DNA of 64,000 nt from Gammaproteobacteria bacterium (GTDB taxonomy: Bacteria > Pseudomonadota > Gammaproteobacteria > GCA-001735895). The DNA lies in assembly GCA_052030825.1 (NCBI GenBank), contig JBPEYE010000392.1:10012-74011 (forward strand), read 5' to 3'. The notes beneath the pieces are model-generated. The model ran no database searches. It was not told the origin of the DNA and worked only from the letters and a program-made list of their open reading frames with translations. Shown here one piece after another: positions 23,085 through 43,232 of the stretch (its first letter is position 1; each line of letters begins with the position of its first letter). The position numbers and the translations under genes were made by a program.

Positions 23085-23312
23085 GGTTTTGCAGGATTAT
23101 ATCGAAAACACCCCGCGGGTTACATTTCGGCCGATCGGCCCGATCGTCTTGACGATCTACCGATACGCAAAGCGAACCGGTGTTGCCGGATTTCGCCGAA
23201 CGGCCCGCGGTGCCCGGCCGTCGCGCTGCGCCATGCGTGCGTTGTCTTCATCGTCGGCGATCGTGGCGCCCGCCAATCTGCGCACGGCGCGACGCCGCGT
23301 CCGGCCAGCCGA

Positions 23313-24084
23313 GTGTCGATGAACGTCTTCGTTTTCGATATCGAAACGATTCCCGATATCGAAGGCTGCCGGCGGATCTACGATTTGCACGGGCTGTCCG
23401 ACGACGACGTCGCGCGTGCGGTCTACCAGCTGCGGCGACAGCAATCGGGCGGCGAGTTTTTGCGCCATCATCTGCACCGCATCGTCGCGATCTCGGCGGT
23501 ACTGCGTACTGCCAGGCAATTCAAGGTCTGGTCGCTGGGGAGCGAGGATTCGGATGAGCGCGACCTGCTGCAACGCTTCTTCAGCGGCATCGAACGGTAC
23601 ACACCGCGCCTCGTTTCGTGGAACGGTGGCGGTTTCGACCTGCCGGTGATTCACTATCGTAGCCTGCTGTACCCGATCGATGCCGCGCATTACTGGGAAA
23701 CCGGCCACAACGACAACAATTTCCGCTACAACAATTACCTGAGTCGCTACCACGATCGCCACACCGACCTGATGGATGTGCTCGCCGGCTATCAGCCGCG
23801 GGCCAGTGCCGCACTCGACGAAATCGCCGCGCTGTGCGGCTTTCCGGGCAAGATGGGTATGAGCGGCGCAAAGGTGTGGGACGCTTACCAGCGCGGCGAG
23901 ATCGCGGCGATTCGCAACTACTGCGAGACCGACGTGCTCAATACCTATCTGGTCTACCTCAATTACGAGCGAAATCGCGGCAACCTCGATATCGAAGCCT
24001 ACCGCGCCGAGTGCCGACGGGTGCGTGACGAACTGAAAGCTTCCGCTGCGCCCCATCTGCTCGAGTTCGAATCCGCCTGGATCG

Positions 24085-24098
<14 letters not shown>
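23313..24098 (+). CDS. Predicted 3'-5' exonuclease, PolB-exonuclease-domain-like (DnaQ-fold, PF10108-like)
   Basis: MNVFVFDIETIPD (Exo I DxE motif), WNGGGFDLPVI (Exo II) and YCETDV (Exo III YxxxD) together define a DEDDy fold related to family-B polymerase exonuclease domains. Confidence 0.75.
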
Positions 24099-25759
<1,661 letters not shown>

Positions 25760-25805: not shown

Positions 25806-25882
25806 TTGGCGTCCCCGGCAGGACTCGAACCTGCAACCTACGCCTTAGGAGGGCGTCGCGCTATCCAGTTGTGCCACGGGGA
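25806..25882 (-). tRNA. tRNA-Arg (anticodon CCT)
   Basis: The reverse complement GTCCCCGTGGCACAACTGGATAGCGCGACGCCCTCCTAAGGCGTAGGTTGCAGGTTCGAGTCCTGCCGGGGACGCCA folds as a cloverleaf with anticodon loop CTCCTAA, a T-arm GGTTCGAGTCC and a 3' CCA. A TAGAAT -10-like hexamer lies 8 nt upstream of the mature 5' end. Confidence 0.92.
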
Positions 25883-25923
25883 CACGGCGTGTTGATTCTA
25901 ACAGCTGGCACCGGTTCGGCGCA

Positions 25924-26940
25924 TCATTCCTGGTAGTAATAGTCGTACTTGACCAGCAGATTGCGCATGAAATCCCACGCCTCGTTGTAAGTCAGCCCGC
26001 TGTCCTGCGGAATGATGATCTTGACATAGAGGTCCTTGCCTTTTTCCTGTTTCAGGCGGCCGAGTCGGCGCTCGACCTCGGCCAGGTTCAAGCGGCTGAA
26101 GTCGCCGCCGGGCTCGCGATAGCGGATGATGTTGCCGTCTTCGCCCTTGATGTAGTAAACCTCGGCGATGTACTTGCCCCTCGCGCTGCGCGCAGGCTTG
26201 ATCAGTTCCTCGTACTTCGACTTGACCGTTTCGTACTCGCCCTTGAGCGTCAGCAGTTGTCGATTGTAGGCTGCGATTTCGTCGTTCAGCAGGGATTTCT
26301 CGCGCGCCAGCTGGTCGCGTTCCTCGGTCAGCAGCGCGATATTGCGCTGTTGATTCTCGCTCGAGGCGACCAGCGCGGCGATTTCCTGACGCGCCGCGGT
26401 AAGGCTTTCGCGGGTCTGTTCGCTCGCCAGTTCCTGTTGCGCGAGACGCTGTCGGAGATCGTCGAGCCGGGCGGACAACTCCTGGGATTGCGCCGCCATC
26501 GCATCGATTTCGAGGTTGGCGGTCTCGAGGCGGGCCCGGGTCTGATCCAGCGTTTGCCGCAGATCGACGTTGGACCGCTCGAGCGATGCAAGGTCCGCCG
26601 CCTGCGCGCGAATCCTGGTTTGCGCGCTGGCGAGCTCCTCGTCGCGCTTTAGCAGCCGCAGGCGCAGGATCGAGTTGGCCTGCTCGGCATTGGCGAGGCG
26701 TTCCTCCAGAGTCACGTTTTCCTGGGTCGTCGATTCGATGATCTGTGCCGCGAGGCGTTCAGCGGCGACGCTTTCCTGAAGCTCGGCGACCAGTTGCCAG
26801 TTGCGCACGACCAGCAGGCTCGTCGCCATCAGGAAGATCAGCGTGATGACCATCATGACGTCGGTGAACGACGGCCAGAAGCTGTTCTCGCCGCCGATTC
26901 CCGCGTGGCTGCCGCCGATCGGAGGGAAGTCCGCGTGCAT
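25924..26940 (-). CDS. ExbD/TolR/MotB-like membrane protein: N-terminal stator-type TM helix with conserved Asp, ~220-aa coiled coil, and a C-terminal domain of unknown family. No OmpA/peptidoglycan-binding domain.
   Basis: The N-terminus SFWPSFTDVMMVITLIFLMATSLLVV matches the ExbD/TolR/MotB plug/TM region, including the protonatable Asp. Residues ~45-260 are heptad-rich (LxxxLxxL, Q/E/R/A rich). The C-terminal ~80 aa (KYIAEVYYIKGEDGNIIRY...LVKYDYYYQE) has no family I recognise. It sits 4 nt downstream of the MotA-like gene. Confidence 0.75.
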   Translation of the reverse strand: MHADFPPIGGSHAGIGGENSFWPSFTDVMMVITLIFLMATSLLVVRNWQLVAELQESVAAERLAAQIIESTTQENVTLEERLANAEQANSILRLRLLKRDEELASAQTRIRAQAADLASLERSNVDLRQTLDQTRARLETANLEIDAMAAQSQELSARLDDLRQRLAQQELASEQTRESLTAARQEIAALVASSENQQRNIALLTEERDQLAREKSLLNDEIAAYNRQLLTLKGEYETVKSKYEELIKPARSARGKYIAEVYYIKGEDGNIIRYREPGGDFSRLNLAEVERRLGRLKQEKGKDLYVKIIIPQDSGLTYNEAWDFMRNLLVKYDYYYQE

Positions 26941-26944
26941 CGGC

Positions 26945-27886
26945 CTAGCCGGGACGGCGCTCCGGCGGCAGGCGGAAACCCTCGCGCAGGATTTGCTTGA
27001 TGCCGTCGATTTCCGCGCCGAGCGCGTCGAGCTGGTCGCGGTTCGCGGCGATGTTCTGCTGCAGCGCCAGGGCCGACTCGTGGTAAACCCCCTGCGTCAG
27101 CCGGAGATTGTCCGCCGCCTCGACGACCGACTGGAGCAGCTCGTTGATCTGGTGCACGATTTCGGCCTCGGTCTTGACGTGCTGCGGCAGCAGGTAGACC
27201 GAGGTCAGGTGCTCGATCCCGCTGAGGAAGTGGGTCTGAACGTCGGCCAGGCGGGTATAGAAGTAACCGAATATCAGATAGGCGACGATCGCGGTGATCG
27301 TCGTCGACAGCGCGGTCGACATGCCGTGGATGACGAGTCCCATGCCGCCGAGGCTGGCGTCGGCCGAGTCGAGCAGATCGGATGCGCCGAGCAGCGCGAT
27401 CGACAGCGCGACGATGGTGCCGAAGACACCGGTCAGAATCAGGATGTTGTTGATGAAGCGGATCAGTCCGAAACGGGTCGCCTCGTCGGCATTCAGCATC
27501 GCCGCCAGCGCACCGTGATTGATTTCCCCGCGCGCCTGCCGGATCGAGCGCATCGTCGTATAACGGCGCGCCAGCACCGAATCGGCAGGCAACCCCTCGA
27601 GCAAATCGGTTTTGCGCGCCTCGACGTTACTGACGAACAGCGCGATTGCCGCTTCCTCGCGGCGATACCGGTACAGGTGATAGAGAATATTGCCGAGCCC
27701 GATGACGAGCAGCGCGAGGATCGCGCTGTTGATGATCACGCCGGTATTGGTCAGCTGATTTTCGAGGTAGAACGGGAAGATCAGGTCGCGGTTCCAGCCA
27801 ATCAGCGCGATCGCGGCCAGGATGACAACGCCGAACTGGATGATGATCCGGGAACTGAGGCTCGTAAGCAGGCGCTGCATATCCAT
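26945..27886 (-). CDS. MotA/TolQ/ExbB proton-channel family protein (4 TM helices) with a ~110-aa cytoplasmic coiled-coil C-terminus
   Basis: Topology is TM1-TM2, a cytoplasmic loop, then TM3-TM4. The TM3-TM4 pair (FINNILILTGVFGTIVALSIALLGA; GMGLVIHGMSTALSTTITAIVAYLIFGYFY) resembles the MotA_ExbB channel core. Confidence 0.75.
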   Translation of the reverse strand: MDMQRLLTSLSSRIIIQFGVVILAAIALIGWNRDLIFPFYLENQLTNTGVIINSAILALLVIGLGNILYHLYRYRREEAAIALFVSNVEARKTDLLEGLPADSVLARRYTTMRSIRQARGEINHGALAAMLNADEATRFGLIRFINNILILTGVFGTIVALSIALLGASDLLDSADASLGGMGLVIHGMSTALSTTITAIVAYLIFGYFYTRLADVQTHFLSGIEHLTSVYLLPQHVKTEAEIVHQINELLQSVVEAADNLRLTQGVYHESALALQQNIAANRDQLDALGAEIDGIKQILREGFRLPPERRPG

Positions 27887-28064
27887 GGGCGGGATCTCTG
27901 GCGGTTGGTCGGCCCGGCGGGCGCGGCGGGCTTGGCTTGTGTATTGAATAATGTTTTCCGGGTGAAGTCAAAGCGCCGGCACCGATCATCTTGAAGCCGT
28001 GTCCGGAATGGCAAAAATCGATTAAAAACAGTAATATGGACGGTCCGAAAAGAAAAAAGGCAGG

Positions 28065-43032: not shown

Positions 43033-43232
43033 CAATCTGCCGCCAGCCGGTTGTTGCGAAACCGCGATTATGTTATAAAGCGCGCGCCCTCGGCAACCGC
43101 GGGGTCCGGATTCGCCCGGAACCCGCCGGCCGGCGGCCAATTAACGACACACACATGCCGACAACGCCCTCATGGGTGCCCGTGATACCAGTGAGCGGGT
43201 CGTGTGCGGCGGGCATGTGGAGGCTTAACCCC

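Follow-up and report, generated by a model that had tools for sequence, protein, structure and literature searches.

A conserved gene pair with sequence features of MotA/ExbB- and ExbD/TolR-type motor subunits and a coiled-coil rod on the B subunit

How the inner-membrane rotation of 5:2 ion-driven motors becomes work elsewhere in the envelope is an unsettled matter. For Tol and Ton, the conversion is obscured because the arm is a protein of its own and flexible. GldM, a B-type subunit, spans the periplasm itself, its periplasmic part being a chain of globular domains. In a described motor of TolQ-like and 'transpore-helix'-vWA proteins, an Asp-bearing B-type helix is fused to a long periplasmic output and no TolA/TonB-type arm is present (PMC12204202). 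In ZorAB, the output element is the tail (PMC11946911). A survey of MotAB relatives found heterogeneous non-flagellar B subunits and does not describe the architecture reported here (PMC12505986), and a full-text literature search found no description of the family. The subject of this study is a pair of adjacent genes, A and B, in a 64,000-nucleotide (nt) stretch of a Gammaproteobacteria genome (assembly GCA_052030825.1, contig JBPEYE010000392.1, positions 10,012 to 74,011 of the forward strand), hereafter called the window. A first reading made from the letters alone, without database searches (the sequence-only reading), had taken the pair for a MotA/ExbB-like plus ExbD/MotB-like module, with which the A orthologues, the membrane helix of B and the strict pairing of the genes agreed. 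The A-B family is real, widespread, uncharacterised and tractable, but it holds no new principle. We lean slightly towards A-B being an ion-driven motor of the MotAB/ExbBD/TolQR kind, in which a rod would carry force or torque across the envelope to a TolR-like head.

Protein A is assigned to the MotA/TolQ/ExbB superfamily by sequence comparison. The Pfam model MotA_ExbB (PF01618; curated cut-off 22.9 bits) matched the same region in seven of the eight A orthologues scanned, and those of loci L082 and L079 exceeded the cut-off with 26.1 and 26.0 bits, respectively. Since these orthologues match, the window protein is placed in the superfamily by transitivity. Its match to the PADLOC model of ZorA was weak (E = 0.003). 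With hhalign, the last two transmembrane (TM) helices of A were aligned with E. coli ExbB and TolQ (P = 0.019), residues 144–219 falling on ExbB 135–215. A profile search of the Protein Data Bank (PDB) with A matched no MotA, ExbB or TolQ structure, indicating that the family is divergent. The pore-lining helices were near-invariant family-wide (NNILILTGVFGTIV...GMGLVIHGMSTALSTTITAI), with Thr/Ser-rich stretches at residues 144–166 and 181–206 (LTGVFGT; MSTALSTTIT). The closest A homologues shared approximately 70% identity.

Clear Kyte-Doolittle peaks were present in A at residues 14–32, 50–68 and 148–166, and a fourth, Ser/Thr-rich segment (residues 181–206) lay within the MotA_ExbB match. 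The loop of residues 71–143 contained 12 Lys and Arg residues and the loop of residues 167–181 contained none, which should put the large loop and both ends of the protein, including the C-terminal tail, in the cytoplasm. From its sequence, A should thus have a MotA-like topology, with about 100 residues in the cytoplasmic tail. The tail is helical and carries the invariant motif ILREGFRLP near its end (residues 299–307, nt 26966–26992). The hydropathy segments and the orthologues passing the Pfam cut-off bear out the earlier description of this protein of 313 amino acids (aa) as a four-TM member of the MotA/TolQ/ExbB family with a cytoplasmic tail.

The N-terminus of B, SFWPSFTDVMMVITLIFLM, matched ZorB1 (PADLOC, E = 2.9e-5; NCBIfam, E = 0.011) and the PDB chain 8vvn_B, deposited as 'Chemotaxis protein MotB-related protein' (E = 0.025). 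In an hhalign comparison with E. coli ExbD (P = 8.5e-4), D27 of B stood opposite D25 of ExbD. On these alignments, the helix is of the ExbD/TolR/ZorB type, in accordance with the original description of an ExbD/TolR/MotB-type helix carrying the Asp. The motif was found in 143 of 150 representatives of 50%-identity B clusters and the Asp was kept in 142 of these 143, so that its conservation among homologues, which the sequence-only reading had named as decisive, was upheld. By homology, the rod and head of B would lie in the periplasm. The residues before the helix (1–21, nt 26878–26940) were also conserved at F5, I8, G9, A13-G17 and E18-F21. In ZorB, the first residues form a plug at the entrance to the tail of ZorA (PMC11946911), and a like contact of B residues 1–21 with the cytoplasmic part of A could therefore occur.

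The middle of B is a long coiled coil. AlphaFold (AF2) predicted residues 25–246 as a single helix, and one unbroken heptad register ran from about residue 70 to residue 246, with Leu, Ile and Val at the a and d positions. Asn was present at the a positions 47, 75, 89 and 124; this Asn placement and the a/d pattern are typical of parallel, in-register dimers. The coil of the window protein (residues 46–246) would measure about 30 nm if straight. The heptad-rich coiled coil on the B subunit that had been claimed from the letters alone was thus confirmed; it is regular and has approximately 200 residues.

The length of the rod varied in steps of the heptad. Indels between close B homologues were 7 residues or multiples thereof. 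The helix-to-head distance, taken between the WPSFTD motif of the helix and the KPARS motif of the neck, was 128–489 residues across the family. Divided by 7, this distance left a remainder of 2 in 83 of 113 representative clusters and a remainder of 6, corresponding to a 4-residue stutter, in a further 15; among close homologues it was 2 mod 7 in 117 of 119. This quantisation had a chi-square p of approximately 1e-68, kinship being ignored. The length of the rod is thus free and its phase fixed, which requires an uninterrupted coil that keeps register with the membrane helices at one end and with the head at the other, and hence implies that neither end of the rod has a flexible linker. Three parts could be distinguished, namely a membrane-proximal part of about 55 residues and a neck of about 20 residues, both conserved on all faces, and between them a variable heptad spacer conserved only at a and d. 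A fold-back hairpin that would return the head to the membrane was rejected in view of the unbroken register, the single predicted helix and the mod-7 total length, which a hairpin would not require. The longest rods arose by tandem duplication, as in P0364 with approximately four copies of a unit of about 50 residues. The B rod of L053 contained 14-residue repeats (EIASLTQDRQRQDE), and the A tails of L047 and L053 contained a 43-residue tandem duplication.

Predicted alone with AF2, the last 92 residues of B formed a compact domain (predicted local distance difference test, pLDDT, 85; predicted template modelling score, pTM, 0.76) with the order beta-beta-beta-alpha-beta-alpha. A Foldseek search with this head gave no significant E-value; TolR had the highest template modelling scores in the list (0.61 and 0.55). 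The helix-strand-helix part was collinear with ExbD 79–124 in hhalign, at a non-significant score. Judging from the predicted model, the head very probably has the TolR/ExbD fold. Given such a head at one end of B and an ExbD-type helix at its opposite end, we read B as a TolR/ExbD homologue with an inserted rod. The sequence-only reading had B lacking the usual periplasmic domain, and this needs correction, as the model and the leading TolR scores point to a TolR/ExbD-like head. Its other statements on this part stood: a C-terminal domain exists, compact and of about 90 aa, and no hidden Markov model (HMM) or profile placed the last 92 residues in a family. A single-sequence Pfam search with the head gave no placement, and among 36 diverse heads of the family the ExbD model matched one (E = 0.04). 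PDB profile searches with shallow and deep alignments of the head found no TolR or ExbD, and comparing the head with TolR, ExbD and MotB of E. coli in hhalign gave nothing significant. The Pfam ExbD model (PF02472) matched neither full-length B nor parts of it, and the OmpA-like peptidoglycan-binding domain, the hallmark of MotB and ZorB, was absent from B.

Relatives of A were encoded in at least 486 genomes, as determined with a pattern scan using one genome per species. The 80 listed genomes were nearly all from uncultured Gammaproteobacteria, including the Gamma 3 symbiont of the gutless worm Olavius algarvensis. A B-profile search covering 1.8 billion cluster representatives found 248 clusters (50% identity) at E ≤ 1e-30 and, with the limit relaxed to E ≤ 1e-10, 402 clusters; the proteins were 258–604 aa long. 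A cultured carrier of B is Pseudobacteriovorax antillogorgiicola (WP_132318978.1, labelled "hypothetical protein"). Gene A was followed by B in nearly all of approximately 90 loci, including all 80 retrieved loci with enough DNA and 5 distant contexts. Neither A nor B scored above threshold in Pfam, NCBIfam or PADLOC, consistent with the earlier view of the pair as undescribed, and the ExbD, TolR, TolQ and ExbB models of Pfam and NCBIfam do not recognise the family. Because these databases do not recognise it, its members currently bear labels such as "hypothetical", "SMC" and "myosin heavy subunit". The Pfam labels that precomputed annotation assigns to B homologues (PF23649 and others) were not reproduced; local matches were to generic coiled-coil families only.

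A-B is a conserved chromosomal pair and not a mobile or defence island. The gene order cgl-enolase-cbs-(cfa)-A-B-tRNA-glnB-rlmD was common to relatives down to approximately 65% identity. In other clades, the pair was found with rpsB-map-glnD-pepP, with tgt-queA and a MlaC-family gene, with thiC and pcm, within yidC-mnmE-(A-B)-mnmG, or with crp and che genes. No third gene was constant across the examined neighbourhoods, and no TonB/TolA-like, OmpA-like or defence gene recurred in the approximately 90 neighbourhoods. The GC content of the locus was typical of its surroundings, and no match was found among 72,556 plasmid and 50,697 phage records. No integrase was seen at the locus; flanking repeats were not looked for. 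A tRNA-Arg(CCT) gene followed B in 19 of 35 loci, approximately 30–130 nt downstream (up to about 270 nt in one locus), with varied flanks. Being retained after B amid differing flanks, it is an old neighbour and gives no evidence of insertion. The proposed island at a tRNA hot spot was therefore not borne out by the typical GC content, the shared synteny, the tRNA linkage and the lack of plasmid or phage matches; nor was a defence-like module, since no defence genes lay nearby and the Zorya HMM matches were weak.

Where the tRNA gene was not adjacent, genes were inserted between B and the tRNA and no integrase was seen (loci L001-L069). These inserts included a permease, a sugar-binding protein and an AraC regulator in L002 (4.6 kb), a 1.6-kb segment in L004 and a liv-type ABC operon in L054-L063. 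In L081, on a 2.47-Mb contig, and in L090, A-B came directly after yidD-yidC-mnmE in an origin-proximal housekeeping block; mnmG followed A-B in L081, and A-B lay near dnaA-rnpA in L090. In L054-L065, L071 and L074, a gene for a MlaC-family periplasmic lipid-binding protein (Pfam E = 2e-26) preceded A by approximately 50 nt in the same orientation (e.g., 7307–7948 in L059). This gene in one clade and the cfa neighbour in the window hint weakly at a connection with membrane lipids.

As a mechanism, we propose that A would form a ring in the membrane with two B subunits in its pore, each bearing the protonatable Asp27. The 5:2 stoichiometry and rotation are suggested by homology. The B helices would extend directly, with no flexible linker, into a two-stranded coil of approximately 200 residues and 30 nm whose strands are parallel and in register; a short neck would join this coil to the TolR/ExbD-like head. 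Proton flow at the A/B interface would turn ring and axle relative to each other, and the rod would pass that force or torque on to the head, which would stand well away from the inner membrane. By analogy with TolR and ExbD heads, the head might hold peptidoglycan or a beta-strand of a partner. A-B alone would then do the job of TolQR or ExbBD plus the separate arm TolA or TonB, the arm being built into B. The sequence-only reading had likewise proposed a motor without such an arm gene, and none was found beside A-B in any of the approximately 90 neighbourhoods. The purpose would likely be an envelope-maintenance task; the binding target of the head and the physiological role are suggested here by analogy. 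More tentatively, and with considerable doubt, the dimeric axle may itself be the output element, its coil carrying proton-driven rotation or torque to an outer-membrane-proximal head while the A tail acts as a counter-anchor. With a stiff arm within the axle whose length changes heptad-wise, the family could offer a clean system for the question of torque versus tension, and it is tractable, having two genes, a single Asp and a cultured carrier in P. antillogorgiicola.

Some observations speak against A-B being a motor of this kind. The A protein of the window itself reached 17.9 bits with MotA_ExbB (E = 0.0027, residues 137–219), below the cut-off. The rod lengths computed across the family, approximately 16–70 nm, are hard to square with one fixed periplasmic span; the idea of the rod as a 'ruler' reaching the outer membrane fits the modal rod of approximately 26–30 nm and is strained by members of 45–70 nm. 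The A tail, measured from GYFY to GFRL, had 96 residues in 55 of 61 loci. Wherever this tail was longer (+14 to +43), the B rod was elongated too (+14 to +280; loci of the comparison: L036, L044, L052, L072, L047, L049, L050, L053, L073 and L081). Longer rods with normal A tails also exist. The joint lengthening occurred in approximately four independent lineages and is unpredicted for parts on opposite sides of a membrane. The charges flanking the B helix (net −2.2 on the N flank, about 0 on the C flank) do not favour an N-in orientation under the positive-inside rule. At face value these charges favour N-out/C-in, and together with the joint lengthening they would suit an inverted topology in which the rod and head of B lie in the cytoplasm beside the A tail and act on the cytoskeleton or nucleoid; the origin-proximal yidC-mnmE-(A-B)-mnmG block in two distant lineages would fit as well. 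We nevertheless regard this topology as improbable. It would flip a helix aligned residue for residue with ExbD and ZorB and put the Asp at the periplasmic end, away from the Ser/Thr ring of A in the cytoplasmic half, and the TolR/ExbD fold is, to our knowledge, periplasmic in all known cases. The N flank of E. coli ExbD is just as acidic, and so shows the same anomaly, yet this protein is oriented N-in. The positive-inside rule was judged uninformative as a test of B topology. Still harder to credit is a passive envelope tether or spacer without motor activity. The rod makes up most of the mass of B and its modal length is near the typical periplasmic width, but a length varying nearly four-fold across the family makes a poor ruler, and the near-invariant TM Asp and A channel helices argue for selection for ion coupling.

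Two other explanations were weighed. The best sequence-level matches of both proteins, ZorA and ZorB1, and the 'MotB-related protein' chain matched by B would agree with a Zorya-like envelope sensor, in which the B head is anchored to the wall, the A ring and tail spin, and the ILREGFRLP tip activates a cytoplasmic partner encoded elsewhere, giving a defence or envelope-stress signal. The tip of the helical tail at the C-terminus of A is invariant, and in ZorAB the tail serves as output (PMC11946911). We consider such a sensor unlikely: ZorC, ZorD, ZorE and other defence genes occurred in none of the neighbourhoods, the housekeeping synteny is vertical with no plasmid or phage copies, the A tail has approximately 100 aa compared with approximately 500 aa in ZorA, B has no OmpA-like peptidoglycan domain, and A is predicted to have four TM segments rather than the three of ZorA. 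An ordinary TolQR/ExbBD paralogue, whose TolA/TonB-type arm is encoded elsewhere and whose rod places the head at that partner, seems rather less probable again. It would draw on the predicted TolR/ExbD fold of the head, a fold that in ExbD reportedly binds the TonB D-box by strand addition (PDB 8vgd), and on a TonB-dependent receptor 4 kb away in one distant locus. Set against it are the lack of an adjacent TonB or TolA gene in the neighbourhoods of the window and related loci, the constancy of the 200-residue rod and the four-TM, tailed A across hundreds of clusters, and the failure of the Pfam and NCBIfam ExbD, TolR, TolQ and ExbB models to detect the family.

The features of the locus are listed in Table 1. 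The coordinates of the two minus-strand open reading frames (ORFs), the 4-nt gap from the A stop to the B start and the tRNA-Arg(CCT) on the same strand were exactly as first described. Beside A and divergent from it lay the genes for a cyclopropane-fatty-acid synthase (cfa), followed by those for a cystathionine beta-synthase, an enolase-superfamily enzyme and a cystathionine gamma-lyase. On the other flank, beyond the tRNA, were genes for P-II (glnB), a methyltransferase resembling RlmD, an exonuclease resembling PolB and a hybrid histidine kinase. Pfam confirmed the genes of both flanks. The glnB and cfa identities given by the sequence-only reading thus stood; relative to the operon, cfa is upstream and divergent, and glnB lies past the tRNA. 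The consensus scan upstream of A found one promoter-like site compared with 0.6 expected, which is weak evidence for a promoter.

Table 1. Positions of A-B features in the window (window coordinates).
Feature	Position	Strand	Description and basis
Gene A	26945-27886	minus	ORF, 313 aa; MotA/TolQ/ExbB-superfamily membrane subunit, presumed pentameric-ring former
A TM1, residues 14-32	27791-27847	minus	Kyte-Doolittle peak 2.24
A TM2, residues 50-68	27683-27739	minus	Kyte-Doolittle peak 2.36
A channel core, residues 137-219 (TM3, short acidic periplasmic loop, Ser/Thr-rich TM4)	27230-27478	minus	Predicted; Pfam MotA_ExbB region; ExbB 135-215 alignment
A C-terminal tail, residues 220-313, helical	26948-27229	minus	Alignment conservation; ends with invariant motif
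Gene B	25924-26940	minus	ORF, 338 aa; putative ExbD/TolR-type axle subunit with inserted coiled-coil rod
B transmembrane helix, residues 22-45	26806-26877	minus	PADLOC ZorB1, 8vvn_B and ExbD alignment
Asp27 of B (codon)	26860-26862	minus	Conserved TM Asp
B coiled-coil rod, residues 46-246	26203-26805	minus	AF2 helix, heptad register, conservation profile
B head, residues 247-338	25927-26202	minus	Predicted TolR/ExbD-like beta-beta-beta-alpha-beta-alpha domain
tRNA-Arg(CCT)	25807-25883	minus	ARAGORN and Rfam; 40 nt past B stop
Candidate sigma-70-type promoter 5' of A, TTGCCA-18-GATGAT	27985-28014	minus	Consensus scan only

The 40-nt spacer between B and the tRNA (25884–25923) holds, 12 nt ahead of the tRNA, the sequence TGTTAGAAT, which resembles an extended -10 element, so the tRNA may have its own promoter rather than depend on read-through from B. 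A long plus-strand ORF over the A/B DNA (26801–27994, 397 aa) is a high-GC antisense artefact. This ORF and those at 23959–25494 and 23157–24425, both on the minus strand (397–511 aa for the three), are antisense to or overlap real genes and are high-GC products; such spurious long ORFs in the window would mislead a naive ORF caller. Elsewhere in the window, Rfam matched a t44 RNA at 43130–43229 on the plus strand (53.6 bits compared with a gathering score of 44). On either side of this match are large ORFs, for which glnD, map and rpsB are a passing guess; rpsB-map-glnD lies directly upstream of A-B in other clades.

In comparison with known systems, A-B resembles TolQ-TolR in its adjacent A-type and B-type genes, the N-terminal helix of B with its essential Asp, the housekeeping context, and the TolR periplasmic domain as the best structural match of the B head. 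It differs in having a rigid coil of approximately 200 residues between helix and head instead of the short linker of TolR, in lacking tolA, tolB and pal beside it, and in the four predicted TM helices and 100-aa tail of A compared with the three TM helices of TolQ; the similarity of the head is also without HMM-level support. Its likeness to ExbB-ExbD lies in D27 of B standing opposite D25 of ExbD and in the alignment of the last two A helices with ExbB 135–215, whereas the rod and the tailed, four-TM A set it apart as they do from TolQR, and neither a TonB gene nor a constant TonB-dependent receptor is found nearby. With MotA-MotB and PomAB it shares a four-TM A protein with a cytoplasmic TM2-TM3 loop and a B-type helix with an Asp. 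Unlike them, it lacks an OmpA-like domain and a flagellar context; visual inspection of B revealed no plug-and-linker segment, and the cytoplasmic loop of A has approximately 73 aa compared with approximately 118 aa in MotA; E. coli MotA and MotB also aligned with A and B more weakly in hhalign than ExbB and ExbD did. As in GldL-GldM, the B-type subunit itself would cross the periplasm, although GldM does so with its globular domains and B with a coiled coil, a comparison made by description only.

Zorya ZorA-ZorB gave the top sequence-level matches for A and B and shares the C-terminal helical tail on the A subunit. The periplasmic part of ZorB joins its TM helix without a flexible linker (PMC11946911), as it appears to do in B. 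However, the long coiled coil is on B here and on A in Zorya, the A tail is approximately five times shorter, the predicted head is TolR-like and not OmpA-like, and neither effector genes (ZorC/D, ZorE, ZorF/G) nor a defence island are present. The closest published concept is the transpore-helix-vWA motor (PMC12204202), likewise a two-gene motor with its output on B; its output is a vWA domain instead of a coil with a TolR-like head, and it uses heterologous vWA pairs where A-B has one B gene. The sequence-only reading had held that this architecture departs from the named stator families, and we agree, given the coil on B and the absence of an OmpA-like domain, effectors, TolA, TonB or Pal, and a short linker. 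The nearest relatives of A-B are ZorA and ZorB by sequence, TolR by the predicted fold of the head and MotA by the topology of A.

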